DNA from: an uncultured Acidimicrobiia bacterium
GTDB taxonomy: Bacteria > Acidobacteriota > Terriglobia > Versatilivoradales > Versatilivoraceae
Assembly (NCBI GenBank): GCA_963786955.1
Contig: CAWBAT010000002.1
Location: 64,001-128,000 of the forward strand
Reading direction: 5' to 3'
Length of the DNA: 64,000 bases
Part shown: one piece after another, positions 2,296 to 64,000 of the stretch
How positions within the stretch are numbered: the first letter of the stretch is position 1
Layout of the letters: each line of letters starts with the position of its first letter
Program-made: the position numbers and the translations under genes
The notes under the pieces: generated by a model
Told to the model about the DNA's origin: nothing
Seen by the model: the letters and a program-made list of their open reading frames with translations, nothing else
The model's database searches: none

Positions 2296-3382
2296 ACTCT
2301 TCATTTGTTTCCTCCTTTCGACGCCACTGCTGGCCCAAACCCCGGTTGAATGCGTTCGAGTGATCTCGAAGTCGATGGACCGCCAGATTCAACTTCCTGG
2401 CGAGCTCCTTCCGTACCTCAGTGTCCCCATCCACGCCAAAGTGGCAGGGTTTGTTGAGAGGGTGGATGTAGACCGGGGGAGTGTCGTTAAAAAAGGCCAG
2501 GTTCTCGCGACTCTGGTGGCGCCGGAGGTGGAGACTCAGATCGCAGAGGCTCAATCCAAGGCTCAGGCGGTGGAATTACAACGTGCCGAGGCTATCGCAA
2601 AATATTCCTCGGCAAGTAGCACTTACGACCGTCTGAAGACCGCATCTGCGACTCCTGGTGTCGTGGCTGGAAATGACGTGGTTGTGGCGGAAAAGAATAT
2701 GGAAGCGGCACAGGCATTGGTCAACGCCTATGAAGGCTCTATCAAGGCTGCCCAGGCATCAGTCCAATCGCTGAAGGCCTTGGAGAAGTATCTCACGATT
2801 ACTGCACCCTTCGATGGCATCATCACCGAGCGTGCGATACACCCAGGGACATTGGTAGGCCCGAATTCAGGCATGGGTACCACGCCGCTGCTGATGCTGG
2901 AACAACTCAATCGACTTCGGCTGGTGGTTGCCGTTCCCGAATCTCAAGTTGGTGGCATCGTTAAGAACGCTCGTGTGCCATTCACGCTACCAGCGTTTCA
3001 GGGGGAAACTTTCTACGGGGTGGTAAGCCGGATTGCCCACGTTCTGGACCAGAAGACGCGCACGATGGCGGTAGAGCTTGACGTCACGAATCCAGGTCTC
3101 AGGTTGGCCTCGGGCATGTATCCGGAAGTTCTTTGGCCCGTACGAAAGAACCGGCCGGCTTTGCTCGTCCCGCCAACAAGCATAGTGACGACCACCGAAC
3201 GCACCTTCGTCATCCGGATAAAAAACGATGTCGCTGAATGGGTGGCAGTGTCTCGCGGCGCATCGGCGGGAGATCTCGTTGAGGTTTACGGGCCATTGCA
3301 CGAGGATGACCTTATTGCTCGACGCGGGAGTGATGAACTGCGAGAAGGCACGCGAGTTAAAGTAAGCTTGCCGGCGCACTGA
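2282..3382 (+). CDS. RND efflux periplasmic adaptor (membrane fusion protein)
   Basis: Signal peptide MSLCKLFICFLLSTPLLAQ, lipoyl-like halves (VDRGSVVKKGQVLATL, ITAPFDGII) flanking a coiled coil, and overlap with the permease 3' end. Alternative start at 2261. Confidence 0.9.
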   Translation: MSLCKLFICFLLSTPLLAQTPVECVRVISKSMDRQIQLPGELLPYLSVPIHAKVAGFVERVDVDRGSVVKKGQVLATLVAPEVETQIAEAQSKAQAVELQRAEAIAKYSSASSTYDRLKTASATPGVVAGNDVVVAEKNMEAAQALVNAYEGSIKAAQASVQSLKALEKYLTITAPFDGIITERAIHPGTLVGPNSGMGTTPLLMLEQLNRLRLVVAVPESQVGGIVKNARVPFTLPAFQGETFYGVVSRIAHVLDQKTRTMAVELDVTNPGLRLASGMYPEVLWPVRKNRPALLVPPTSIVTTTERTFVIRIKNDVAEWVAVSRGASAGDLVEVYGPLHEDDLIARRGSDELREGTRVKVSLPAH

Positions 3383-32285: not shown

Positions 32286-32410
32286 AAATAGCCCCCCGAT
32301 TGATCGCTGGCTGGCAGTGCGATTGATTTTCCGGGGAGCGAGTGAAAATAGCCCAGCGATTTATGGCTGGGTGAGAATACATTTTATGTTAGGCCCGTCC
32401 CATAGGGACG
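32286..32410. repeat. REP-like palindromes upstream of the Y1 transposase
   Basis: AAATAGCCCCCCGATTGATCGCTGG (32286), AAAATAGCCCAGCGATTTATGGCTGGGT (32345) and CGTCCCATAGGGACG (32396). Confidence 0.75.
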
Positions 32411-32433: not shown

Positions 32434-32886
32434 ATGTCACACACCTATACCAGTACTTTGATCCATTGCGTGTTCAGCACCAAAGAGAGACATAAAACAA
32501 TAACTCCGGAAATAAAAGAACGCCTCTGGGCCTACATGGGCGGTGTTGCGCGCGAAAATAAAATTAAGGCACTGGCAATCGGCGGCATCGACGATCATGT
32601 GCATCTGCTTCTGTCTCTTCCGGCAACGATGTCCGTTTCGAAAGCTATTCAACTGATAAAAGGCGGCTCATCAAAATGGGTTCACGAGACATTTGTGGAT
32701 CGCAAGAGATTTGCATGGCAAGAAGGATACGGTGCCTTTAGTATCGGTATCTCACAAGTTGATGAAACAATCAGTTACATCCAATCTCAGCCTGTACACC
32801 ATGGAAAGCGAAGCTCTCAGGACGAATACCGACAATTCTTGGAAAAACACGGAATCGAATACGATGAACGCTACGTTTGGGGCTGA
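32434..32886 (+). mobile_element. tnpA: IS200/IS605-family Y1 transposase (probably REP-associated)
   Basis: HCVFSTKER, HUH motif DHVHLL, KGGSSKW, FAWQEGYGAFS and the catalytic Tyr in YIQSQ. No tnpB nearby. Flanked by inverted palindromes. Confidence 0.92.
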
Positions 32887-32892
32887 ATCATG

Positions 32893-33021
32893 CGTGCCTA
32901 CGGCACTGGGCAACTTGCGCTCATCCTGACCCAGCGATAAATCGCTGGGCTATTTTCGCTGGCTCCTTCGGAGCCACGTGGAGTTTGGACAATTTGGAGT
33001 GCGGTAGCCTGCTACCGCTTT
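32893..33021. repeat. REP-like palindromes downstream of the Y1 transposase
   Basis: CGTGCCTACGGCAC, ACCCAGCGATAAATCGCTGGGCTATTTT (inverted copy of 32345), GGCTCCTTCGGAGCC and TTGGAGTGCGGTAGCCTGCTACCGCTTT. Confidence 0.75.
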
Positions 33022-33143
33022 CTGGATCATAGTCGACCCATCGAAGCGCCAGCTTGCTGCCACATATCGTCAATACCAAGTGTGATCGAGGTTCCGACCC
33101 TAGGTCTACTTGACAGGGAAATCGTCCCTTTGGAGAACATTGC

Positions 33144-33733
33144 ATGAAACACAAACTGTCACGTCGGTTTTTTCTGAAGTCTAGCTGGAAAGTTCATTGG
33201 CGCTTGGAACTCTTTCAATGGCGGCACTTGTTGCCTCTGCTCCGATTACAATTGTAACGCCGCAAGGACTTCCTTCCTCGAGTATCGATCCAAGGCTGAA
33301 AGACCTGCTGCGCGCTGCCATGGATACCATAATCCCCGCCACCGAAGGGATGCCTTCCGCCAGTGCGGTAGGCGGAGTCGGTTATCTTGAACAACTCGCT
33401 CAGTCTGACCCATTAATCAGAAGTAAGTTGGAGCAGAGCTTGAAAGCCTTGGACGAAGTCAGTCTCAAATTTTTGAAGTCCGGATTTTCTTCTCTTCCGC
33501 AAAGTCAAAGAATTGAAGCTCTCAAGCGACTGGAGAGTCAATCGCCTCTTGACCTTTTTGCCGATTTGCGAGATTACGTTTACGAGTCGTATTACACCCA
33601 ACCGCAGGTCTGGAAATTGATTGGCTACGAATTTTACCCCACCAATCATCAGGGGCCTCACATGAAGCCTTTCGATGCGACCGCGCTCACACAGGTCAAA
33701 AAGATGGGAAAACTGTATCGGGAGGTCTCCTGA
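33144..33733 (+). CDS. Gluconate 2-dehydrogenase subunit 3-like protein, Tat-exported; apparent 1 bp deletion near 33189-33191
   Basis: DTIIPATEGMPSASAVG and YYTQPQVWKLIGY. The Tat peptide MKHKLSRRFFLK from ATG 33144 (GGAG RBS) joins ORF 33197 if one base is added. The stop overlaps the GMC start. Confidence 0.82.
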
Positions 33734-51829: not shown

Positions 51830-54118
51830 CTATTCAAGTAAAAACACTCGCACATCCTGATGAGGAACTTCGACCCGAATACCTTTCCTTTCTAGTGGGA
51901 TTTCTTGCCCACTGTGGATATCTAAAACACGTTTACAAGGAATCGGAATCTCGATTCGGTCGGTCTGATCTTCGGTGCGATCGTTGAATATGGCGAGCAA
52001 GTTGCGAGTGTGCCCTTCGATGAGCCTTGGTCGAAGGCCGATAGAAGTGACCTTCGGTTTCACCACAGGAATGATGATGGCACGTAAGAACTCAATCCCG
52101 GCATCGTCTCCGGCGTGAATGGAAGCTCCCAGATTGGTGCCAAGGTAGTAGGCCATGCCCTGCCCTACTTTCTTCCTGGCGCCGACCCACAGATCTCGAT
52201 AGCGGGCTATAGGCTGAGCAGAAGAAACTTCGATAGGAGTCAGGAAGGTGTGCGCCTGAATGCTAAGCCCGGCCGGGTCCAAAACCTCGATTTCAGCTCC
52301 GCTATAAACGCTATCTTCATCAGGAACGATGCTCTTCTTCGCCGTGGAAGAGGTGTTACTGCTAATCGCCACCGATTCGTTGGTTTGAGGTTGAATATAG
52401 AAACTATCCTTCTCGCGATAACCAAACGTTTCAGCCAAACCATAGGGCGGAACTACGGGGTTATAGAAACAATGGCTGTCGAACAGTCCAAAAGCCGTGT
52501 CCAATATCAGCGTCCCTCCCCGTTCCACAAAGCGACGCAATTCCAGGCATGTTTCTTCCTTGCCCATGATGTGCCAGGGAGCGATGATCAACTTATAGCT
52601 GGCTGCCTTTAGGCTTTCGGGCTCGATAAAATCCGCCCACAGATCCAAGTTCCACAGCGCTTTGTAATATCCCCGAAACGACTTGATCGACACATCTTCC
52701 TGGCCATTCATGGCGTAAGTGAGTAGTGCGCTATCCGGATCTGTCAAGATGGCGATTTCCGGTTTTGGAAGGTGATCCTGCAAAACATCCCAGTAAGATT
52801 GAAAAAGCGCGCGATTGCGCGAAGCTTCTTCCGCACGATCGGTGCGAGCGCCGCTCCGTTCCACAAGCCCAAACCCTGTCGACTCGCTCCCGGAGCCTTC
52901 GGCCTGATAAGTCCAATACAGGATTCCCTTTGCTCCGCACGCTACGGCCAACCAGTTCCACAATCGGATATCCCGTGGACGCATTTGGGGGCTTCGCCAC
53001 AGTCCTCTATTTCCATGACCCCCTTGCAATTCCGCCATCCAGAATTCTCTTCCGGCAGCACAGCAGCGCGTGATCTCGAATTTGGCAGCCCCTTCAGAGA
53101 CTGGCAGGTTAAACCAGCGAGGGAATATGGAGACTCCCCAAGTATCCACTACCTCCGCCAGCCGCCAGCCGTCAATACCGCTGTGTGCGATCGGATCGAT
53201 CGGAGGATTATGCCCGGCATGATCCTCCATAATATGGGAAGGGTCGGCAGCTTTGAGTTGCTCGACTCGAAATTTGAGTTCAGCAGTGCTCCTTTCGATA
53301 ATGAAGCGCCGCCAATCGACCCAATCCATGTAGGTCCCCATGGCCCGCGGCGGATCAATCGACTGCCAACTGGGATAGCGGCGTACCCAGACTTCGTTCA
53401 AACGTTCCAGCGATCCGTAACGCTTTTCCAGCCAAACATGAAAAGCTTCAATGGTCTTATCGCAATAACAGAAAAGCCGCTCTTGCGGACCTGCCCAGAT
53501 GTTTCTTAACCAGGCCGGTTCGATATGGGGTTCGTTCCAGCAATCATAGGCATAGAAGGAAACATGGGAAGCGCTGAACTTGGCCAACGCCTGAATGTAG
53601 CGGGCCGCGGCTTCGCGAATGGGCTGCCAATCCAGGCATAACCCCGGCCAGCCTCCCGTCATATTGTTGCCGCTTCCCTGCAGCCGCTGAATAGTGCCTT
53701 TTGCATCAACGTAGCGCGTTTCGGGATGGGCTTGCTCGAGCCACCAGGGAGCGGTTTCAAGGACCAGTCCCATGAGAACCTTGATCCCGAGTTCGTCACA
53801 CCACTGCATGACTTCCGCAAGATCATCGAAGACGAAGCGATCCGGAGCAGGATTGTAATAATCCCAACCGGGGTAAATGCGAATGATGTTGAATCCATAA
53901 TCCTTGGCGATGGCCTGCAACATTTCTCGACGCTGCTCTCGTGGAGGGTTCGGAGGCCGGTAGAAAGCTGTGCCGTAGATAAATTGCTTCTTGGGAAGTT
54001 CACCTAAAGCATCGGTGGAGTTTGGCCCTGCCAAAATCCGCAAGCCGCTCCAGCTGAGACTAATGCCTGCTGACGCTTGCAGAAATTTTCGCCGCGAGAA
54101 GTTCCCTGGAAATTTCAT
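51830..54118 (-). CDS. GH42-like beta-galactosidase with trimerization domain, Tat-exported
   Basis: Tat SRRKFLQ, acid/base WNEP, nucleophile WMAELQGG, CYC motif and RFVERGGTL. Confidence 0.88.
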   Translation of the reverse strand: MKFPGNFSRRKFLQASAGISLSWSGLRILAGPNSTDALGELPKKQFIYGTAFYRPPNPPREQRREMLQAIAKDYGFNIIRIYPGWDYYNPAPDRFVFDDLAEVMQWCDELGIKVLMGLVLETAPWWLEQAHPETRYVDAKGTIQRLQGSGNNMTGGWPGLCLDWQPIREAAARYIQALAKFSASHVSFYAYDCWNEPHIEPAWLRNIWAGPQERLFCYCDKTIEAFHVWLEKRYGSLERLNEVWVRRYPSWQSIDPPRAMGTYMDWVDWRRFIIERSTAELKFRVEQLKAADPSHIMEDHAGHNPPIDPIAHSGIDGWRLAEVVDTWGVSIFPRWFNLPVSEGAAKFEITRCCAAGREFWMAELQGGHGNRGLWRSPQMRPRDIRLWNWLAVACGAKGILYWTYQAEGSGSESTGFGLVERSGARTDRAEEASRNRALFQSYWDVLQDHLPKPEIAILTDPDSALLTYAMNGQEDVSIKSFRGYYKALWNLDLWADFIEPESLKAASYKLIIAPWHIMGKEETCLELRRFVERGGTLILDTAFGLFDSHCFYNPVVPPYGLAETFGYREKDSFYIQPQTNESVAISSNTSSTAKKSIVPDEDSVYSGAEIEVLDPAGLSIQAHTFLTPIEVSSAQPIARYRDLWVGARKKVGQGMAYYLGTNLGASIHAGDDAGIEFLRAIIIPVVKPKVTSIGLRPRLIEGHTRNLLAIFNDRTEDQTDRIEIPIPCKRVLDIHSGQEIPLERKGIRVEVPHQDVRVFLLE

Positions 54119-54356
54119 CTTGAGAGTATTTATTTGGCTAAGTGTTGATGTCTTCCATTTAGAGGATTACCAACTTTAACAAGAGGGCAAAGAATAGCAT
54201 ACCTGCCTAATTGAGGAAGCTTTAGCATCCTTTGTCAAAGCGTGGAGTTCACACCCGATGGCGAATCTGAAATCAAACTACTTACTCAGTCGCAGTTTGA
54301 TGTATTCTTTTCTCAGCACGATACCATCATTTTGAAATCCAACATGGGAGGTCATT

Positions 54357-54770
54357 ATGAAAAGTTTCCAACAGTTCCGCACAATTGGTTTTATTTTTTT
54401 GGCCTTAGTTGGTGGGCCGAGCCCGACGATCGCCGCGCAGAGTGATCAAATAGGCTTCAGTCAATTTCGTCACTTTCTAGGTGGCTTTGTATCCGATAGC
54501 CAACAGTCGATGTCAACGTTACAGAGTCGTCCACATGTTCACATCGTCGAGGCGACTTACGGGGACAAGTCTACAGGCAACACTTGTGTGCCAAACTTGC
54601 GAATCTGCAAAGGGACCTCTGAATGTGAATTCACGGTAACTGACGGCCTTTGTGACGTGAATTCGAAGGTAAAAACACTTGAAGTCGTTTGGGACTGTGG
54701 TGCTGGTTCTGAAATGAAAACGACCACTGCGGTGAAGGGCACAAAAATTTCATTAGTGTGCGGAAATTAG
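54357..54770 (+). CDS. Small secreted Cys-rich protein, SUEL/galactose-binding-lectin-like
   Basis: Signal peptide, pattern IVEATYG...C...CKG...C.F.V...C...KTLEVVWDC, and a GGAGG RBS. Confidence 0.6.
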   Translation: MKSFQQFRTIGFIFLALVGGPSPTIAAQSDQIGFSQFRHFLGGFVSDSQQSMSTLQSRPHVHIVEATYGDKSTGNTCVPNLRICKGTSECEFTVTDGLCDVNSKVKTLEVVWDCGAGSEMKTTTAVKGTKISLVCGN

Positions 54771-54956
54771 ACTGATTTTTCGTTAGGGCATAGCGTACAG
54801 CCGGATCCTGTAGTGGTCAGTCATGCCAGCAAGCGGGTGACAAACAGTCCGCACGTTTGATCCGCTTTGAATAATTCCTTCCCTTCTTTACCTCTTGCCT
54901 TTCCTCTGAAAATTTGAGGGTACAAGCTTCCGACCGGGCATGAGAGACTATGTCGC

Positions 54957-55830
54957 TTAGCGGAAAATGGCCATGAGAATTTCGGCAAAAATCAACGCGA
55001 TGATCACCAGTTCCAGGGTGTGGCTCTGAGCCGTCCTGACCCGGTCAGTCAACAACTGATAGAAGTTGGCAATGATATCCAGCGGGCGGGAAACGGAGGC
55101 TCCCAGTCATGCAGATAGAATATTGCCGAGCGCATGTGCATCGGGCCAGGTAAAGGTCCCAATCAATTGAGCGCGCCATCTCCCCATTTCAAGTACCAGA
55201 AATTCGGTTCGAAGCTCCGCTAGTTCTTAAAAAACATTACGATAAGGGGTCTGGAACGGCAATGACCATCCCGTAGGTTCTCGGACTAACCCTTGATACT
55301 CACCGATCCGCTTGTCTAACTCGGCGTCGATGTAGCGGGCCTCCAGCAATTCCACGTTGAGTAACTCCAGCACGGTGGCTGCGTCCATGTAGTCCCGGTC
55401 GTATATGATCGCCGCGTTCCAATCAATCAAGACAAGATCGTTCTGAAAGTAGGTTATGCGTTGGGTTAATGCATCTTCCTGTTGTTCCCGACTCAGCGGC
55501 TGAGTTTCAAAGCGGAGAACTTGGGCAAGCGTCGCACGGTGCTGCGTCACTAACTCTTCCGCACGCCACAATTGATCAAATTCTTCAATGATGAACAAGT
55601 AATAATCCTCAACAAGGGAGGATAACTCAGGCTGAACAATGGCAGGTCGAATCCCCTCTATGAGTTGAAGCGCCAAAGTTTGCGCATGAGCCTCAAGATT
55701 CCGGCTGTAGAGTTCTTGGCTAAGTTTTGGGAGGTCTTGCAAGAAAAGCCTCTGCCCAGGAGCCGTTAAGCGCCAGCGATAAGCGAGCTTGCCGCTCCGA
55801 AGTCGAAAACCATCGCATGAATGTTATAAT
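54957..55830 (-). pseudogene. Degraded RMD1/DUF155-like membrane protein gene
   Basis: Fragments in different frames: AMVFDFGAA; LVEDYYLF...DLVLIDWNAAIIYD...ELLEARYID; TLELVIIALIFAEILMAIFR-stop. Multiple indels, and the 5' part is missing. Confidence 0.7.
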
Positions 55831-55885
55831 TCAGTTTGCAGAGCCGTAAAGCTATATTCGTCATGGTATAGAAGACATTTACGAA

Positions 55886-56851
55886 CTAACGATTCTGCCC
55901 TGACGCCAGCAGAGCCTCAAGCTCGTTGCCAATTTGTTGGGCTATTTCCGCCTGGCATGTCACACCATCGCCAATATTCCGCGCGTAACGGCCAGCCCAA
56001 AGATGCTGGTCTGTCGGGCCGTGAATGAGTTGTGCCGTCACACGCACTCGATCCCCCGAGAGCAACAGCGTGCCTTCTAAAACGGCATCCACATTCAACT
56101 CACGGGCAATTTGAGTCAAATGTTTTGTCGTGCTCTTGTAGGCCAGGGTTGACCGTCGAGAAGTCACCTGCAAAGAACCAATCTTGGCCAGACGGGTGAT
56201 CAGTTCCTCCGTCAATCCCTCTGCGAAAGCTTCCTGCTCGTGTTCATGCTGCAAGGTGTCAAGCGGCAGAACCGCCACCGAGCGGATTAGCGGGAGATCT
56301 GTCTTCAGCCATTTCAGATGAGCATAGTGCCACTCGATCGCAAAAACTGCCATGACAACAACACTGATTCCTGCCCACAGAATGCCGGTTTTCAGCAATC
56401 TTGTTTTTCCATGCTTCGCCGGGGCTAACGGCTCACGGTCCACTCCTTTCTTGTCGCCCTCCAGAGCGGGGCCTTCCCCAACCACGGGAACGGTCGCTGA
56501 TTTTGTCTCTGGGACAATGGGTTCGATGGGATGGATGAATCGGTATCCCGTACGCGGAATCGTTTCGATGTAGTGTGATTGCTCCGCTGCATCCGAGAGG
56601 GCTTCTCGAATCCGATGCACGTCGTGGTTGAGAGCATTTTGAAAGTCTACAAACGTGCCATCTGGCCAGAGCTTCCGTTGCAACTCTTCCCGGCTAACAA
56701 TCTCTCCGTGGTGCTCAAGCAACAGCTTGAGCACCTGGAAAGGCTGGCTCTGTAAATTGACCCTGTGGCCATGGTTTGAGAGTTCATGCCTTTCAAAATC
56801 AACTTCAAATGCCCCAAAACGGATCTTGGATGGAGAAGTGAAAGGAGACAT
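55886..56851 (-). CDS. Membrane-anchored transcriptional regulator: OmpR/CadC-type winged helix + TM + TolB-N-like domain
   Basis: RFGAFEVD, VSREELQRKLWP and YIETIPRTGYRFI, one TM, then SVAVLPL...AEGLTEELITRL...VDAVLEG...QHLWA. No TPR tail. Confidence 0.9.
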   Translation of the reverse strand: MSPFTSPSKIRFGAFEVDFERHELSNHGHRVNLQSQPFQVLKLLLEHHGEIVSREELQRKLWPDGTFVDFQNALNHDVHRIREALSDAAEQSHYIETIPRTGYRFIHPIEPIVPETKSATVPVVGEGPALEGDKKGVDREPLAPAKHGKTRLLKTGILWAGISVVVMAVFAIEWHYAHLKWLKTDLPLIRSVAVLPLDTLQHEHEQEAFAEGLTEELITRLAKIGSLQVTSRRSTLAYKSTTKHLTQIARELNVDAVLEGTLLLSGDRVRVTAQLIHGPTDQHLWAGRYARNIGDGVTCQAEIAQQIGNELEALLASGQNR

Positions 56852-57262
56852 GGAGGACTACCTCCACGCTAGGATAGGGAATGATGACTAAAAATTCCCA
56901 TGTAATCTTTGGTAACTTCAATCAGTGTATACCTACTACCTTATTGAATCAATGATTTAACCATACAGATCTATTCCGGATCTAATCCACAAATAATTAA
57001 GAAATAAATAAGACCCAATCCATTGAAAAACGTGAGTCAGCGTGCTATGCAACACGTTATTAGGGGCGTTATAAGTTTCCTCAAGTCCCCTAAGCATTCT
57101 GTGGGTCTGACTCACTTCAAGAAGTGCCTTTAACTGCACTTCGCAATACCTAGACAAAACATAGGGAGCACGAACAAACACAGCAGGGAAGGTCCGCCGT
57201 TTCCCATTAGAAATTGGCGCGACTGTATTTCTGTTGAATTTCTCGTGGCTTAACTCCACTGG

Positions 57263-57385
57263 AAGGAGGCTTTTTTGACCTTACTGGCGAGCCTGCGGAG
57301 GTTCTACCGCACCCCACAGACTTACCATCAAGGGCGTACGCCCAAATATCTTGCGGTAGTTTTTGGTGGAGGAGGCGAATCATGA
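57263..57385 (+). promoter_or_regulatory. Conserved 5' leader copy 1: RBS, putative 36 aa leader ORF (TTG 57275 to TGA 57385) and CTACCGCA/TGCGGTAG stem
   Basis: AAGGAGG, then 5 nt, then TTG encoding MTLLASLRRFYRTPQTYHQGRTPKYLAVVFGGGGES. Its TGA overlaps the ATG at 57382. Paralogous to 58449-58573. Confidence 0.55.
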
Positions 57386-57912
57386 AAAAACTCGTTATCT
57401 CTCTATTCGCAATACTGATATTCAGCGGGTTCGCCGCAGCTCAAGAGCGGCCACAATGTTATGACTCGGAAGGGAACTTCATCTACAAGGGAGTGGGGGC
57501 CTGCTTTATCGAGCTTGCCGGCCAACCTAATGGCATAGCTGGTTTTACGGAGGACGGGAGGCTGATAGCGGAGTGGATAAATAATAATAACGATTGGATC
57601 AGGGGCAACCGGGTTAAAGGGACTTTCCATCTATCGGACGCGCACGCGAACCTTACCTTTATCCCGCCCAGTGCATGTGATCAAAATGGGCAAAATTGTG
57701 ATCCCACCAAGTTTTACCACGGCGAGGGCCTGATTTCACTCAATGGACCACTGTTTTTCGGCTCGTGCCCCGATACGCTTAATATTATGGGGAAGGTCCA
57801 GAGCCCCTCGTCGGGGGACTGGTTCAGGGCCCAGTACATGCTTGTATTGACGAAAAGCCAAACTGAGGGATGCAAACTAGGTTTTGAAAAACTCACCGTA
57901 ACGCCATTGTAG
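57382..57912 (+). CDS. Secreted hypothetical protein (6 Cys)
   Basis: Signal peptide MKKLVISLFAILIFSGFAAA and a GGAGGAGG RBS. Confidence 0.8.
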   Translation: MKKLVISLFAILIFSGFAAAQERPQCYDSEGNFIYKGVGACFIELAGQPNGIAGFTEDGRLIAEWINNNNDWIRGNRVKGTFHLSDAHANLTFIPPSACDQNGQNCDPTKFYHGEGLISLNGPLFFGSCPDTLNIMGKVQSPSSGDWFRAQYMLVLTKSQTEGCKLGFEKLTVTPL

Positions 57913-58026
57913 GTCGACGGTCTGGGGGGGGATCATCTCGATCACCCAATTGAGCATTAGCTAGCAGCGACGGTTAGTTCGCAACTCGGTCTGGCTGTGG
58001 CTACCGAAATCATTCTCCACATATTT

Positions 58027-58335
58027 GGAGGCAGCGAATAGCACAAGCGAAATTCACAGGTCGCTCCTCTGGAGCTTAGCGGGCAGATTTTGGCTGCATA
58101 CTATAAACAGGAGGCTCCTGACGGAGCCAACAAAGAATTGGAGAGGGGAGGAGGTACGAAAGCAGCGTGGTGCGACGATTATTCCCAACGGGACGAGGGC
58201 GTCCCGGCTCCAGCATCAGATTGGAGACGCCGCGCCCTCGCGGCGCCTTATTCCGGCCAAGCCGCATAGCGGCGGCCTGTTTATAGAACAGGTTATTCGT
58301 CAAGAATTGAAGCTCCGTTAGGAGCGACCTGTGAA
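58027..58335. repeat. REP-like family GCTCCTCTGGAGC / CTATAAACAGG-GGCTCCTGACGGAGCC, direct plus inverted copy
   Basis: 58027-58160 matches 59372-59505. An inverted copy lies at 58272-58335. Confidence 0.75.
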
Positions 58336-58448
58336 GATGGTGAATTTGCAATGTCCACAACCAGCCTCTTCCTGAAGGGCCGATCCGCCAGACGGCGGAC
58401 GAGGTCGAAGCAAATTTGGCAGTTGTCGCTCTGTTTTCATCTTCATTC

Positions 58449-58573
58449 AAAGGAGGTTCTATCAACCCGCGAGGCAAGCCTGCAAGGCTTCTACCGCACC
58501 CCGGGCAGCCTGCGCAACAAGGCCATCGCCCAAATATCTTGCGGTACTTTTAGGTGGAGGACGAATTACATGA
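58449..58573 (+). promoter_or_regulatory. Conserved 5' leader copy 2
   Basis: AAGGAGG...GCAAGCCTGC...TTCTACCGCACCCC...CGCCCAAATATCTTGCGGTACTTTTAGGTGGAGGACGAATTACATGA. Encodes ASLQGFYRTP and, one frame over, PKYLAVLLGGGRIT-stop overlapping the ATG at 58570. Confidence 0.55.
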
Positions 58574-59053
58574 AAAAACTCATTCTTGCTTTTGCAGCTT
58601 TGTTTAGCTTGGCACTACTTGTTGTGCCGTCTTTCCCGGCGGGGGGGACACACAGGTCTTGGACATCGCCATGAATGAAACCTGGGACCTCCCGTGTATT
58701 GGTGAAACGGTTCAGGTCACCGGGATACTACACTCGGTTTCTTCGGAAGTTATCAACAATAACAGGGGGCACTGGATGGTTCAGTATAATCCGAAGGGAT
58801 TGACCGGCGTGGCCTCACCACAGGTACGGTCTATCACGCAACTGGTCTAACACGCTATAGTTACGAGTGGACCGTACAACCTGATGAATACCCCTTGCAC
58901 TGGACCATCATAAATAAAATACCATTCATCAGCGAAGGTTCTGGGGCAAACTTCTTGGAGATTGACACGACGCAGTTGACGCTAAACGCCAATGGCGACG
59001 TGACGGTGGATTTCAACAACTCTCAGATTGTCTGCCGAGGAAGAAATCCTTAA
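58570..59053 (+). pseudogene. Secreted hypothetical protein with two apparent 1 bp deletions (pseudogene or assembly error)
   Basis: Signal MKKLILAFAALFSLALLVVPSFP. Adding one base at the G7 run (58641-58647) and one at 58811 gives a 161 aa protein ...LPCIGETVQVTG...GLTGVGLTTGTVYHATG...TLNANGDVTVDFNNSQIVCRGRNP. Confidence 0.7.
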
Positions 59054-59371
59054 GCAATCCAGACGTCGGTGGCCACGGTCAATGCGAATGCAGCCACGAC
59101 GGTCTTGTTTGCTGATAATGTAATCACTTACAGCTTGGATGCGCCGCAGGACTCGTTCTCAGGCCTGCGGGGCTTCTGTGTTAGTGCTGCGATGTCTGCG
59201 GACCAATGGGGCAGCCACGAAGAACGCGTTTGTTACGGGCTTCGTGGGCTTTTCCTTAATTCTCATGGCCACGGCTGATGAGGGTCGAATAGGAAAAACT
59301 CACGATCAATGCCAAAAGGGCATTGATCGTGGTTACCAAAAACATTCTTCATCGGGTGCTTTGTCCCTACG

Positions 59372-59505
59372 GGAGCAGCGAGAAGCGTAAGGGAAATTCA
59401 CGGGCCGCTCCTCTGGAGCTTAAGAATCGATTGTGGCTCGAGACTATAAACAGGCGGCTCCTGACGGAGCCGGCAGGCAATTGACGGAATGAGGATGACG
59501 GAAAT
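59372..59505. repeat. Second direct copy of the 58027-58160 repeat
   Basis: GAAATTCACGGGCCGCTCCTCTGGAGCTTA...ACTATAAACAGGCGGCTCCTGACGGAGCC. Confidence 0.75.
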
Positions 59506-59742
59506 CTTGTCGCTCGTACCGCCGGGTTAGGATAAACAATTGAGAATGCTTCACGGCCTAGAGCACAGTGGCAAGCCCTTTGGAACCTTTGTAGGCTAGA
59601 GGCTTTGTCAAAGCAGGCAGCAGAGTTGAATCTTAAATCTGCGGCTTTTGAAAGCGGCGAGGGGAAAGGCCGCGGATCCTTTCCATCCCCTGCCGCAAAG
59701 CAGCACCGCTTTCGAACGTGGACTGCGGGTCCGCACGGCAGT

Positions 59743-60777
59743 CTAGGGCTTCTGCGCCAACGCAAGGACGACAACAGCTGCCAGGATGATTACGCACCCC
59801 CAGGCCAGCCAGGTCTTGGCCAGGGCTCCGGCACTGGCCCATTCCCCTGTGGCTAACCCCGCCACGTTACTGGCGATAATATTAGTGCCCATCAGCAGTG
59901 GCCAGCCGACTACCGTCCCAAAATCACCCATTCGGTTGATTCCCATACCATAGATCGCCAATCCTCCGTACCAGAATCCGCCCATCAGCAGGCCAAACAG
60001 CCAATGGCTAGCTGTCCCGGGGAGTCTGAACCGCGAAGCAGTTCCATTCCGACGCAAAAGGTAAATGCAGTAAATGGCATTCGCCACAAATCCTCCGCTG
60101 GTGGCCAATGCAGCAGCAACGTTGGGAGCCCACACGGGGGAAGTTCCCAGGCGGCGGGCAGTCTCGATCGTCTCAGTCCCAAAGGCATAGGCGAAGTTCA
60201 AGAATGACGAAAGCAGGCCAGCTGCAATGCAGACGAGTAGTCCCGAAAGAAATGCTTTTTGCGAACTCCCTGGAGATTGCTCTCCCTTCAGAAGCCTTTC
60301 GGCCCGCTCCCGCAGTAGGCCTGCGACAGCCACGCCAGCAATCCCCCCAAACATGACCATACTCCCGATCAGATAAAAATATCCTTGAGTAGTGAAGATC
60401 TTCTGGGGAGTGAGAATAAGTAGTGGTACCAGAGACCCCGCCGAAGCACAGATACCCAGGATAATAGCCAGGCCGAGACCGATTCCCAGCATCTTCACAC
60501 CTAGCCCAACCAGCGTGGCGCCGATCCCCCAGCCGAAACCGAAGAGCACGATCATCCATAGTGATCTGGTAGGAGCAGAGGCATAAATCTCGGCAAGGCG
60601 GGGGATCGTCGCGGCATTCAACAGCCAGGGGAAAATAATGAAGCCGGTCAACGCAAACACAAGCCAAATGTGTTCAAATCCCCACTGCCGGGCATACTTC
60701 ATGGGTAATGCGAAAACTCCCAGCAAGATCCCTCCCAGCAATACAAGCGCCGCCCCAAGAAAAACAGAGATATCCAT
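59743..60777 (-). CDS. rhaT: L-rhamnose/proton symporter family protein
   Basis: About 10 TMs. Motifs FALPMKYARQWGFEHIW, GFGWGIG, GSLVPL, VGWPL and GLATGEW. Alternative start at 60789. Confidence 0.85.
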   Translation of the reverse strand: MDISVFLGAALVLLGGILLGVFALPMKYARQWGFEHIWLVFALTGFIIFPWLLNAATIPRLAEIYASAPTRSLWMIVLFGFGWGIGATLVGLGVKMLGIGLGLAIILGICASAGSLVPLLILTPQKIFTTQGYFYLIGSMVMFGGIAGVAVAGLLRERAERLLKGEQSPGSSQKAFLSGLLVCIAAGLLSSFLNFAYAFGTETIETARRLGTSPVWAPNVAAALATSGGFVANAIYCIYLLRRNGTASRFRLPGTASHWLFGLLMGGFWYGGLAIYGMGINRMGDFGTVVGWPLLMGTNIIASNVAGLATGEWASAGALAKTWLAWGCVIILAAVVVLALAQKP

Positions 60778-60816
60778 GAGAGCCTCCAATAGAATAAAAG
60801 AACGCCAATTCAGCTT

Positions 60817-61377
60817 CTATAGATACCGTCTCACACGACTGCAATATTTCATGTACTCTTCACCAAAAACCTTTCGCAGATGCTGCTCTTCTGCCAAGAC
60901 TATTTTGTGGTGAACAGCGGCAACGAATACCCCAATGCAAAATAAGATTGGGTTCAGTGTGTAAAAGACGGCAGCAAGCAGCGTTGCATAAACTCCAAGA
61001 TACATTGGGTTCCGACTGAATCGGAATAAACCATTGATTTTCAGCTGGGTACTTTCTTTGGGAGACCCAATTCTAAAAGAGTCTCCCAGTCCAAACCGTC
61101 CGATGAATAAGAGCAAAAATCCTGAGACCCATAAGATCAGCGAAACCCATTTCAGAAACTCGGGTACCTTGATGAAGGAGAGGTTAATACCCCAGCTATG
61201 CGAAACCATGGCCCCCCAAAGAATAAGAATCGAATACTTACTCATGTAAAAAAGCTTCCGATCAATTGGTGGCTCGCCGTCCATTTCAATATTCCTGCGT
61301 CGAAACAGTTCCCCTCCACCGAACAAAACAACCAAGAACAAGACTGGAAGTAGCGTTATACCGAAAGACTCAATCAT
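60817..61377 (-). CDS. Isoprenylcysteine carboxylmethyltransferase/PEMT family membrane protein
   Basis: GLFRFSRNPMYLG and EEQHLRKVFGEEYMKYCSRVRRY. Confidence 0.88.
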   Translation of the reverse strand: MIESFGITLLPVLFLVVLFGGGELFRRRNIEMDGEPPIDRKLFYMSKYSILILWGAMVSHSWGINLSFIKVPEFLKWVSLILWVSGFLLLFIGRFGLGDSFRIGSPKESTQLKINGLFRFSRNPMYLGVYATLLAAVFYTLNPILFCIGVFVAAVHHKIVLAEEQHLRKVFGEEYMKYCSRVRRYL

Positions 61378-61449
61378 CACTAACTTCCTCAAGAGAAGTG
61401 CAATTATTACCAATGCCTTAGCGGCTGGGGTATCACCCGGCAGCGCGTT

Positions 61450-62184
61450 CTAATCATTGATAACGTCAAATAGCCGGTCCCTCTGCTCGTACAGATTGGC
61501 CGCCGCTCCCAGGGCGACTTCGTAAGTGTCGCTTTCAAGCGCCGTCACGATGCCTTGGGCGACTGCCTTGGCGCTCATCATGGTGTCGTTTTTGTCGGGC
61601 CGTCGGCGACGGCCGGCCAGCTCGGTAGGAACGATCGGAGGTGCAATCTCGAACACTCGCACTCGGGTGCTGCGGAGCTGGCGCCGCAGCGAAAGGCTCA
61701 ACGAGTGAATCGCGGCCTTTGTCGCGCTGTAGACAGGAACTTGGGCCAGCGGAGTAAACCCGAGGCCTGAGGAAATGTTGACGATTGCCGCCTCGGTCTG
61801 CTTCTCCAGCACTGGGATCAGCAGAGCAGCTAAGTGGATCGGCGCGCGTAGATTCGTTGCGAGTTCCTCATCCGCTTCCGCCAGGTCCCGAGGGCCCTTG
61901 AGAAAGTTTACAGGACGTTGGATGCCGGCGTTGTTGACCAGGATGTTGAGTGAGGGAAGACGCTTCTCTAGCCATTGCAGCAGAGAGGACCTCGAGGCAG
62001 CTCGCGAAACGTCGCAGACTTTCACCTGCAACTGAGGAATGCGCCGCTTAGCAGCCAGTAGTTTGGCCCGACGGCGGCCACAGATGGCTACCGTGTTTCC
62101 CTTCGCGACCAAAGCCTCAGCGAGTGCCCAGCCGATCCCCGTCGCGCCTCCAGTGATCAGAACTGTGTTACCGTATATTTTCAA
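61450..62184 (-). CDS. Short-chain dehydrogenase/reductase (DltE-like)
   Basis: TGGATGIG, NNAGI, SSGL and YSATK. Confidence 0.92.
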   Translation of the reverse strand: MKIYGNTVLITGGATGIGWALAEALVAKGNTVAICGRRRAKLLAAKRRIPQLQVKVCDVSRAASRSSLLQWLEKRLPSLNILVNNAGIQRPVNFLKGPRDLAEADEELATNLRAPIHLAALLIPVLEKQTEAAIVNISSGLGFTPLAQVPVYSATKAAIHSLSLSLRRQLRSTRVRVFEIAPPIVPTELAGRRRRPDKNDTMMSAKAVAQGIVTALESDTYEVALGAAANLYEQRDRLFDVIND

Positions 62185-62469
62185 GAGGGGATCTCCAAAT
62201 GCCAGGATGCTTTACACGGAATAGAAAACGGCACCTGCGATGGCTCCGATCATCCTTGCGTCTTACGTGCATCGGCTGTCCAACATAGTACCACTGAAGG
62301 TTACACCCGTGGCAGTCTCACTCGCAATGACTTGTAAAGATTGTCACATCTGACAGCCTTCTGATATTTTCATGTCCTGAGATAACGAGAGAGCATGCTT
62401 CACACTTTTTCGTCATCACTGAGCGTGAAACGCTACGAAGTTTTCCGGGTAGACAGGAGGATATCACCC

Positions 62470-64000
62470 ATGGTAATCAACACCCTCCCCAGACACTGCA
62501 AACTGCAATCGAGTCCTGTCTTTTCTAGGCGAGAGGTTCTACAAAGTGCTTTGGTAGCTGGTTTTGCTGTCCCGCTATGCCAAGTGCTGGACGCTACCCC
62601 GCAGAGTGGCACTGGTGACAGCTTCAATAGTTCAAAGAGAGTGATCTGGCCGGCGGAAGCCTACCGCCGCTTTGCCGTCGACATTCACGTTCCTGACTGG
62701 GATGAGGCGCTACTCGGTGAATTCGACGGCTCCCAATTTGTGAAAAACATGGCGGAAGCAGGCGCGCAGTCGGTGCTGCAATATACGAACTCGCATGTGG
62801 GACTTTGTTTATGGCAGACGAAAATAGGAAAGATGCACGCCAGTTTAAGAGGTAGAGACTTCTTCGGAGAGGTGGTCAGCGAGTGTCGGCGTCGTGGTAT
62901 TGCGCCTCTGGCGTACTTTAGCGTTATCTTTGACAATTGGGCTTATGAAAACCATCCGGATTGGCGAATCCTGCCAGCGGAAGGATACGGCCCCCAATTG
63001 AAAGGACGTTACGGGGTAGTGTGTCCGAATTCTCCGTATCGAAAGTATGCAGCAGCCTGTGTTGAGGAACTAACGACCCAATACGATCTCGATGGGATCT
63101 TTTGTGATATGACGTTCTGGCCAGGAATTTGCTACTGTCCTCACTGCACTGAACGGTTTCGGCAGGAATCCGGGATGGAACCGCCTCGGGTGGTAAATTG
63201 GAATGACCCACAGTGGCGAAACTTTCAGAAATCACGTCAAAAGTGGCTTTTGGAGTTTGCTCAGCTTCTTACTGATACCGCCAAAAAAAGTCGGCCGACG
63301 ATTACCATCAACCATCAGTTTTCCACCATTTTTCATAATTGGACACTGGGTGTACCTTTAGAACTGGCCAAGACCTGTGACTATGTGGGAGGCGACTTCT
63401 ACGGCGGCCCAAGCCAGCATTCCCTAGCCTGTAAGGTCTATGATGGCCTCTCCCGATCCCATCCTTTTGAGTTTCACACATCACGGACACGGGACCCTCG
63501 AGATCATGTGACAGTCAAGCCTATGGCCGAGCTTCGAACCGAGTCATTTGTGGCCACTCTTCATTCGGCCGCACTGCTGCTCGTGGACTACATCAATGCC
63601 AACGGGACTCTGAATCCGGAAGTCTACAAGTATATGGGGAAGCTGAGTGCAGAGCGGGCTCGTTACGAGCCTTTCTTGGGGGGCGAGCTGCAAGCCGACG
63701 TCGCGATCTACTATGACAAAGAATCGATGTACAACCCAGACGAACAGGGCATTCAGGTTTCTGAATTGAAAGCTGTGGACGACTGTCCTCACCGGGAGGC
63801 CGTTGTCGGTCTAGCAAGGGTCATGAGGGAGGCACACCTTCCGTTTGCAGTCGTCACCAATGCCAACATAGAAACAATCGAACGTTATCGGGCAGTGCTG
63901 CTGCCGAGTGTTCTAGAGATGACTGCAGAGCAGGCAGAAAGGTTCCGTCGTTTCGTTGAGTCTGGCGGAGTTCTGTATGTCAGCGGCTCATCTTCCCTCG
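62470..64000 (+). CDS. GH151/GHL6-like putative alpha-L-fucosidase with beta-galactosidase trimerization domain, Tat-exported; runs off the window and is absent from the ORF track
   Basis: CAGGAGG RBS and ATG at 62470. Translation gives Tat SRREVL, DIHVPDW, MHASLRGRDFFGE, HPDW, CPNSPY, DGIFCDM, CYCPHC, PFEFHTS and RFVESGG. Confidence 0.82.
   Translation, partial: MVINTLPRHCKLQSSPVFSRREVLQSALVAGFAVPLCQVLDATPQSGTGDSFNSSKRVIWPAEAYRRFAVDIHVPDWDEALLGEFDGSQFVKNMAEAGAQSVLQYTNSHVGLCLWQTKIGKMHASLRGRDFFGEVVSECRRRGIAPLAYFSVIFDNWAYENHPDWRILPAEGYGPQLKGRYGVVCPNSPYRKYAAACVEELTTQYDLDGIFCDMTFWPGICYCPHCTERFRQESGMEPPRVVNWNDPQWRNFQKSRQKWLLEFAQLLTDTAKKSRPTITINHQFSTIFHNWTLGVPLELAKTCDYVGGDFYGGPSQHSLACKVYDGLSRSHPFEFHTSRTRDPRDHVTVKPMAELRTESFVATLHSAALLLVDYINANGTLNPEVYKYMGKLSAERARYEPFLGGELQADVAIYYDKESMYNPDEQGIQVSELKAVDDCPHREAVVGLARVMREAHLPFAVVTNANIETIERYRAVLLPSVLEMTAEQAERFRRFVESGGVLYVSGSSSL

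Follow-up and report, generated by a model that had tools for sequence, protein, structure and literature searches.

In Escherichia coli, RfaH is loaded onto RNA polymerase at the ops site (ops12, GGCGGTAGCGTG) (PMC5995543). Its recruitment was reported to require the ops bases 3-8, of which G5 and T6 are read directly; C3:G8 closes a small hairpin of the non-template strand, and the polymerase pauses at U11 (PMC5995543). The substitutions G4C, G5A, A7T and G8C abolished the recruitment of RfaH, and C3G and T6A lowered it (PMC5995543). RfaH-like factors are described to act on every operon whose leader contains ops, and the recruitment of NusG paralogs beyond RfaH and UpxY of Bacteroides is called largely unknown (PMC7593976). 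The UpxY paralogs load at pause sites in the leader, designated opsX, in which an ops-like hairpin of the non-template strand is joined by upstream duplex DNA and by nascent RNA hairpins aiding pausing and escape; in Bacteroides, the paralog is the first gene of the long operon controlled, and the pause hairpin is located upstream of the site (PMC11685472). The present report deals with a leader of about 120 nucleotides (nt) containing the core of ops, which was identified twice in a stretch of 64,000 nt (the window) from the genome of an uncultured acidobacterium (assembly GCA_963786955.1, contig CAWBAT010000002.1, positions 64,001 to 128,000), each time in front of a gene with a signal peptide.

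The two leaders and the genes following them have the following organization in the window:

57261..57381, plus strand: leader copy 1 (W1), from the first Shine-Dalgarno (SD)-like box to just 5' of the main ATG; 124.2 bits with the covariance model (CM) R1
57263..57269, plus strand: SD-like box AAGGAGG (SD1) of copy 1; GGAG invariant in 7/7 aligned copies
57275..57385, plus strand: upstream open reading frame (uORF) of 36 codons in copy 1, with a TTG start and a TGA overlapping the main ATG (57382); not conserved
57289..57304, plus strand: hairpin P1, GAGCC-loop-GGTTC; 82.9% of the cells paired, register varying among the copies
57304..57311, plus strand: 5' arm of the stem P2, CTACCGCA; TACCGCA invariant in 7/7, reverse complement of the ops-like core
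57352..57366, plus strand: ops-like block TGCGGTAG (3' arm of P2), then TTTTTGG; TGCGGTA invariant in 7/7
57368..57375, plus strand: main SD (SD2) of gene 1, read from the sequence, ending 6 nt 5' of the ATG at 57382
57382..57912, plus strand: gene 1, an open reading frame (ORF) for an orphan signal-peptide protein of 176 amino acids (aa); no Pfam family
58449..58569, plus strand: leader copy 2 (W2), homologous to W1; 111 bits with CM R1
58570..59053, plus strand: gene 2, a signal-peptide gene, broken or misassembled; three pieces in three frames

A preliminary description of this DNA, made from its letters alone, had regarded the two leaders as homologous, and an alignment of W1 and W2 bore this out with a mean column identity of 84% across 176 columns. 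The longest block common to both is the 20-mer CGCCCAAATATCTTGCGGTA, which occurs in the window at positions 57339 and 58527 only and was obtained in 0/100 shuffles. The block TTCTACCGCACCCC is found exactly at 57302 and 58489, and both copies contain TACCGCA and TGCGGTA. In W2, the 5' arm is located at 58491-58498 and the ops-like core at 58540-58547, where it reads TGCGGTAC with an exchange of G8 to C. This copy was found as it had been described, except for its main ATG, which is corrected to 58570-58572.

The genome of the window, G000 (5.65 Mb, 93% complete), contains only W1 and W2, as obtained by BLASTN, by an nhmmer profile and by the CM. The preliminary description had asked for copies elsewhere, and six more were identified, five in the sister species G001 (G1a to G1e) and one, M55, on the contig L055, the only positive contig in a scan of metagenomes. 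In G001, G1c, G1b and G1a are arranged in tandem on one contig, and G1d lies together with the degenerate copy G1e on a contig of 4.7 kb. M55 is located at the locus orthologous to W1, with a leader about 89% identical and the same divergent regulator gene (about 89% nt identity). However, the gene behind M55 differs from gene 1, and the homology to L055 stops right after GTTTTTGG. A ninth, partial copy in G001 has only the first 40 nt or so of the module in common and precedes a gene for a secreted repeat protein of 322 aa. It lies at locus L050 (G001:C18) on the reverse strand, at about 3030-3215 in reverse-complement coordinates, and keeps the SD box and ATGAATCTGCAAGGCGGGCC; beyond the shared part, a different sequence of about 150 nt follows, containing a uORF of 32 codons. 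Altogether, 8 full copies and 1 partial copy are known from two species and one metagenome contig. The invariance of sequence blocks was judged on an alignment of seven copies (A3), and the degenerate G1e and the partial copy were looked at separately.

A CM search of 31 genomes of the family gave no copies beyond G000 and G001, and among 151 genomes of the class 2/151 were positive, both known already. In an exact-pattern scan of a species collection, only G001 was matched. A CM match in genome G019 (E 0.03) is located inside an apparent coding region and was dropped as false.

All 8 full copies have the same orientation and end a few bases 5' of the SD of a signal-peptide gene. As judged by eye, all genes behind the leaders start with a typical signal peptide, and each unit consists of a single gene of 0.5-1.4 kb with its own terminator-like module behind it. 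The dissimilarity of the downstream proteins noted for the window, where the products of genes 1 and 2 are without similarity to each other, extends to the other copies: in an all-against-all BLASTP comparison, which has no valid rows for two of the three gene-2 pieces or for the 322-aa protein, the proteins behind G1c and G1d were the sole similar pair (E 4e-12). Two downstream proteins are DUF3466/HAF-like, and Pfam gave no family for the proteins of 458 aa, 267 aa and 176 aa (gene 1). In a search of 5.8 billion sequences, restricted to near lengths, the gene 1 product matched only itself.

The view of the module as a portable cassette, fixed in orientation before dissimilar secreted-protein genes, is thus upheld by the 8 full copies and the partial one. 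A neutral divergence of a simple tandem duplication is excluded, because the leaders of G000 and G001 are 70-84% identical, compared to 65-79% for the coding DNA of these genomes, and because the genes behind them are unrelated. The module is a real, lineage-restricted, portable and non-coding leader.

That the leader does not code was revealed by a comparison of the frames. The preliminary description had considered a leader or arrest peptide, by which the downstream gene would be controlled. The SD-led ORF of 36 codons with its ATGA overlap is present in copy 1 as described, and in G1c an ORF of 30 codons ends at the T-run. However, no frame is common to the copies. In W2, the frame shift is real, with ASLQGFYRTP and PKYLAVLLGGG in different frames and ATC at the position of the start codon. 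Even the orthologous leaders W1 and M55 differ by indels (+1, -1 and 2 nt), stops occur in each frame in some copy, and the uORF frame is broken in M55 (right after FYRT), W2 and G1b. A start codon at a workable distance from SD1 is present in 5/9 copies only, opening ORFs of 36 codons in W1, 3 in G1a, 5 in G1b, 30 in G1c and 32 in the partial copy; in W2 and G1d the start is replaced by ATC, G1e has none, and the TTG of M55 follows GGAGG by only 2 nt. The substitutions are distributed over the codon phases as 36/49/43 without a marked phase. A conserved leader or arrest peptide is contradicted by these data and appears highly improbable.

What is conserved instead includes the central part of ops. 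The bases GCGGTAG of the leader correspond to positions 2-8 of ops12 and are exact in 6/8 copies, and the bases 3-8 (CGGTAG) are present on the non-template strand of the leader, with W2 and G1e having a C at position 8. These two copies with the exchange of G8 to C are the two which precede frameshifted genes. As to the flank involved in pausing, T11 is present in 7/8 copies, but position 12 is occupied by T. The pause consensus (G-10, Y-1, G+1) can be placed 2 nt later, with a T as the Y, at T13/G14 in 6/8 copies, as read from A3 and from G1e.

Compared to the enterobacterial ops, the leader has the same core (positions 2-8) on the non-template strand, in a 5' leader near the first gene, and a T at position 11. 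Like in RfaH systems, specialised NusG paralogs are encoded in the genome, and the targets are accessory genes for extracytoplasmic products. It differs at positions 1, 9, 10 and 12 (T, T, T, T), with the likely pause being shifted by 2 nt, and its core also serves as the 3' arm of an RNA stem whose upstream partner is invariant, and is followed by U5. In addition, the targets are single short genes, the host is an acidobacterium, and the paralogs are UpxY-like rather than RfaH. The likeness to opsX consists of a factor of the UpxY family and a leader site with an ops-like hairpin and RNA hairpins; in contrast to opsX, the site belongs here to unlinked single genes and is itself part of the RNA stem. 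The leader would work most like an ops or opsX leader. It is not assigned to this family, since the flank involved in pausing is incomplete, its targets are other than long operons, and recruitment is only predicted.

Four genes with a NusG domain were identified in G000, the highest-scoring of which is presumably the housekeeping gene and three of which are paralogs; G001 has two, including one paralog. Four paralogs tested with the UpxY model NF033644 (cut-off 100) gave 126.2, 114.9, 102.9 and 96.2 bits, and the same four gave 70-77 bits with the RfaH model, which has a cut-off of 144.5. UpxY-like paralogs of G000 are encoded at C6:921602-922195 and C5:251176-251715. A common layout is seen in two of the paralog operons of G000 and in that of G001, where a small ORF (a PilZ domain was found in the only one tested) is followed by the paralog and then by polysaccharide genes; these operons carry GTGCGGTAGCTTG or GGCGGTAGCCTG. 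In G000, this motif is located 53-60 nt before the start of the PilZ ORF. The sites in the paralog operons are:

G000 contig C6, 921119-921131, plus strand: paralog-operon motif
G000 contig C5, 252400-252412, minus strand: paralog-operon motif
loci L078, L093 and L097-L101: further paralog-operon motif sites

The consensus of these sites, ATGGGAC-N7-nGCGGTAGCYTG, matches ops12 at 11/12 positions. In the family, 25 paralog loci were compared, of which 10 are linked to a preceding gene similar to UDP-glucose dehydrogenase (Ugd) and 15 are not. Upstream of the latter, GCGGTAGC was found in the sense direction at 10 sites in 9/15 loci (20,760 nt; about 0.3 expected), with 0 antisense and 0 downstream sites, whereas the 10 Ugd-linked loci contain 0 sites in 15,263 nt. 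The 8-base core, identical to that of the enterobacterial ops, is found again upstream of genes for UpxY-like paralogs in six of the family's genomes. Two more TGGGAN-N6-8-GCGGTAG sites in G000 fall within ORFs of the opposite strand and were not considered further. The phyletic pattern of leader and motif is the same: G000 and G001 have both the leader and a motif-bearing paralog, and the closest relative G002 (88-89% nt identity) has neither, its NusG genes being only the presumed housekeeping gene and a dehydrogenase-linked paralog.

On this basis, it is tentatively proposed, at somewhat less than an even chance, that the portable leader recruits a specialised NusG paralog at an ops-like site, the bases of which also make up the 3' arm of a terminator-like hairpin. 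Through the leader, a NusG paralog of the UpxY/RfaH type would control single accessory genes for secreted proteins. The block TGCGGTAG with its T-run and GG, on the non-template strand just upstream of the ribosome binding site, would serve as the ops-like loading site. RNA polymerase would pause there, with T13/G14 matching positions -1 and +1 of a pause site that has a G at -10; at this pause, the ops core would still be in the transcription bubble, and the paralog could bind the exposed non-template DNA. A few bases later, the transcribed core would pair with the upstream arm CUACCGCA to a stem of 7-8 bp followed by U5, a geometry like that of an intrinsic terminator or a pause hairpin. 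Without the factor, transcription would stop or stall where the leader ends, whereas a polymerase carrying it would read into the gene. SD1 probably binds ribosomes on the leader, since it is conserved with or without a following start codon, which may stabilise the mRNA or start a coupling. An alternative pairing of UGCGG with CCGCA, which is only partly conserved, might provide an antiterminator. Pausing, factor loading, termination and read-through are all predicted here from the sequence. A stricter version, in which the leader would be a self-contained, transplantable 'ops-in-a-terminator' cassette whose same eight bases first load the UpxY-like paralog and then form the terminator arm, is regarded as doubtful.

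Several observations weigh against the recruitment of a paralog. The leader differs from the motif of the paralog operons at ops positions 9, 10 and 12, and it has no upstream TGGGAC box. In 6/15 of the non-Ugd loci, GCGGTAGC is absent from the stretch examined. The exact 12-mer is not enriched family-wide, with 27 matches compared to 45 for the reversed control, and outside G000 no exact match to it was found beside a paralog. The spacing of TGGGAC-N-GC fits a sigma-54 promoter in 8/10 sites, and rpoN is present, so that the paralog-operon motif could be an odd sigma-54 promoter instead; this is weakened by 13 clear sigma-54-type sites of G000, which have the canonical form TGGCAY-N5-TTGCW. 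The ops-like core is also part of a dispersed repeat of 120 nt and could be derived from it. Known NusG paralogs act on long operons, whereas single genes with their own terminators are found here. P2 has a loop of 40-42 nt, which is unusual in a terminator, and was not called by a terminator scan. Its ensemble probability ranges from 0.00 to 0.86 and is low in 4/7 copies.

The hairpin itself leads to the question of whether the leader acts as an RNA. A complementary stem, as had been noted preliminarily, is present, but a structured RNA could not be substantiated further, since covariation and fold stability are not above those of shuffles. The 7 pairs of P2 (TACCGCA/TGCGGTA) are invariant in the 7/7 aligned copies, and P2 therefore provides no evidence of covariation. 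For three helices taken together, the covariation score was reached by 87/500 shuffles and is not significant; 92.4% of the cells are paired compared to 91.3% in shuffles, 101/500 of which reach the observed value. One pair of P1 shows the types GU, AU and GC. Folds of single sequences are no more stable than those of shuffles (z +0.16 to +1.35). P2, with 7-8 bp, is directly followed by U5 in most copies. In an alternative pairing, UGCGG of the P1 loop would pair with CCGCA of the P2 5' arm, excluding both P1 and P2; a count by hand on A3 gave 5 bp for three of the copies, 4 bp for another three and 3 bp for one. The statement that no named riboswitch or leader family is recognised holds, as Rfam gave 0 matches at E<=1 for 54000-64000, and a scan of a small input gave only chance matches of 13 bits on the opposite strand. 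An RNA structure of the leader is possible but unproven. Frozen arms with a freely variable interior, the opposite of a riboswitch, point to a leader recognised in a sequence-specific manner.

A factor-independent RNA leader acting in cis is nevertheless an alternative to the loading of a paralog, although a rather unlikely one. Here, the stem with its U-run would attenuate or pause transcription, or mark the mRNA for processing or stability, as set by ribosomes at the upstream SD or mini-ORF or by an RNA-binding factor, with SD1 serving as a 5' stabiliser like a STAB-SD. Such elements are found on Bacillus mRNAs, cryIIIA being an example, and the likeness consists of a perfect SD-like box far upstream which is kept without a start codon, together with RNase J in the genome; the comparison covers just the first 10 nt of the leader. 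In agreement with this, SD1 is kept in 9/9 copies, including the degenerate G1e and the partial copy, of which only the 5/9 mentioned above have a start codon following, and an RNase J homologue of G000 scored 564.6 bits. A strong SD without a start codon can stabilise mRNA, as described in PMC3997798, in which STAB-SD and similar 5' stabilisers of Bacillus mRNAs are cited. The stem-plus-U5 geometry, the alternative pairing and the G-U pairs on the sense strand would also fit an RNA. On the other side, neither covariation nor fold stability distinguishes the leaders from shuffles, the main SD is not occluded beyond the level of shuffled leaders, the uORFs are inconsistent in length and position, and both frozen arms with the freely varying interior would be left unexplained.

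Two specific forms of such a control were rejected. A sequestration of the main SD by the pyrimidine tract 3' of SD1 was not borne out, as the occlusion did not exceed that of dinucleotide shuffles, 100 of which were made for each copy (fraction at or below the observed value 0.10 to 0.80). CsrA binding was discarded, since no CsrA gene was found in G000 at its completeness of 93%.

Leader-peptide attenuators of the trp and his type resemble the acidobacterial leader in that an SD and a short ORF lie upstream, the hairpins exclude each other, and a stem with a U-run precedes the gene. The acidobacterial leader differs from them by having no conserved ORF or regulatory codons, an ORF being absent in 3-4 of 9 copies, and by its loop of 40-42 nt.

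The two arms might also act on the DNA level, as inverted half-sites TACCGCA and TGCGGTA of a promoter or operator bound by the adjacent CadC/ToxR-like regulator. This regulator adjoins leader 1 in G000 and M55 on L055, being divergent in both, and both half-sites are invariant. Sigma-70, ECF and sigma-54 promoters were searched for in and before the leader by a scan and by eye with nothing convincing, and the scan gave no sigma-70-type promoter on the plus strand of 56800-59800. However, the half-sites are 40-42 bp apart, the arrays of G001 are without such a regulator on the stretches examined, and the best matches to it in G001 are 39-55% identical and located on other contigs. The perfect SD-like box at the 5' edge and the abutting of the module on the main SD point to a transcribed leader. 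An operator is accordingly considered quite improbable.

Of the dispersed repeat (about 120 nt), G000 contains five copies, full or partial, in mixed contexts, and one of them is located at window positions 32981-33104. The repeat holds TTTGGACAATTTGGAGTGCGGTAGCCTGCTACCGCTTTCTGG, in which the ops-like core GCGGTAGC, a loop and GCTACCGC form a perfect hairpin, followed by a U-rich tail TTTCTGG which is common to the leader and the repeat. The 5' block of the leader, CTACCGCAC(T/C)CC, is the reverse complement of GGAGTGCGGTAG in this repeat. As the core is present in it as well, a repeat origin of both arms is plausible.

Beyond an origin, the leader might as a whole be a low-copy repeat element of the type of REPs or MITEs (repetitive extragenic palindromes; miniature inverted-repeat transposable elements), spread or homogenised by recombination and kept by recent copying instead of function. 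REP and REPIN elements are mobilised by RAYT transposases, and the leader resembles them by its inverted arms and the variable sequence between these; the genome also contains 8 Y1 transposase genes and abundant REP-like repeats. This reading, which is held to be unlikely, draws on the density of other repeat modules in the island around the leaders, on the shared 5' block and tail, on the eight RAYT-like genes, and on the homology of the orthologous loci, which breaks exactly at the edge of a module limited to one genus. Its predictions are at variance with the very low copy number of 2 in G000 and 5 in G001, the same orientation and position relative to the SD in 8/8 copies, and the lack of a copy in any other context; the RAYT genes lie elsewhere and are not linked to the leader. 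Furthermore, the leaders of G000 and G001 are as similar to each other as coding DNA or more so, invariant and variable blocks alternate, and the degenerate copies are those beside broken genes. A target-site duplication of the SD by a mobile insertion was also rejected, as in a comparison by hand the two SD flanks agree in W1 only. An integron attC site, an invertible promoter and a T-box were dismissed because of no integrase nearby, a spacer that is too short, and no T-box match in Rfam.

The Y1 (IS200-like, RAYT-type) transposase of the window is encoded at 32434-32886 on the plus strand (Pfam Y1_Tnp, 100.7 bits) and is flanked by inverted repeats of 44 nt at 32335-32378 and 32923-32966. 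Seven further paralogs in G000 are 30-44% identical, some of them adjoining clusters of REP-like repeats. A REP-like unit of about 75 nt is present at window positions 58031-58161 and 59375-59504, and inverted at 58270-58340. It contains two small hairpins (GCTCC..GGAGC and GGCTCC..GGAGCC) and has 55 BLASTN matches in G000 in both orientations; it was also identified in G001 and G002. A GC-rich palindromic repeat (GGGACGAGGGCGTCCC, GACGCCGCGCCCTCGCGGCGC) is located at 58184-58254 and is found between the cassettes of G001 as well.

The surroundings of the two leader-gene units in the window comprise the following features:

55820..59209, no strand: accessory island of 3.4 kb (regulator and both leader-gene units), absent from G002
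55886..56851, minus strand: divergent CadC/ToxR-like membrane regulator, with Trans_reg_C (Pfam, 62.7 bits) and a FlgO-like domain
59210..59262, plus strand: 3' terminator-hairpin module (GCCACGAAGAACGCG ... CTTCGTGGGCTTTTCC) after gene 2

Contig C8 of G002 is syntenic on both sides with 88-92% identity, and about 390 bp replace the stretch 55820-59209, which is missing there; the regulator and both leader-gene units therefore form an accessory island. Modules homologous to the terminator hairpin (GCCACGA...TCGTGGGCTTTTCC) are located behind the genes of G1a, G1b, G1c and G1d and also at the empty site of G002. Further copies are present in G000, and the copies can be told apart by compensatory changes in the stem. 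Since the homology of G000 and G001 in the island and array regions is limited to non-coding modules, we infer that genes may have been exchanged by recombination between the conserved 5' module and the conserved 3' module. Just outside the island, a signal-peptide protein of 137 aa without a Pfam family is encoded at 54357-54770 on the plus strand, without a leader module.

Gene 2 is frameshifted, as had been noticed at the outset, and consists of the pieces 58570-58674, 58659-58850 and 58895-59053, with a run of G7 (58641-58647) at the first break. At 33144-33733, a twin-arginine-like start (MKHKLSRRFFLKS) runs out of frame, near a T run at about 33165, into an ORF of 178 aa, which precedes an oxidoreductase-like ORF of 535 aa. 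With this frameshift-like gene and the G7 run, homopolymer errors of the assembly are possible, and an assembly error cannot be excluded for the break in gene 2.

Neither a leader of this kind nor an acidobacterial ops-like motif was found described in a literature search, which was not aimed at Acidobacteria; the main text of PMC7593976 makes no use of the word Acidobacteria, and the novelty of both is tentative. The locus makes the recruitment of NusG paralogs testable in the Acidobacteriota. If the proposed recruitment is true, the ops core would be shared across distant phyla and used by NusG paralogs far outside the Proteobacteria, and about 120 bases of leader would be sufficient to plug newly acquired genes into an anti-termination regulon. 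If the version with an ops site inside a terminator should apply, one small module would give any captured gene a factor-dependent expression. Even if the ops model fails, the leader is a clean case of a non-coding cassette exchanged between unrelated genes, which is useful for annotation and expression studies in a poorly studied phylum of soil bacteria.

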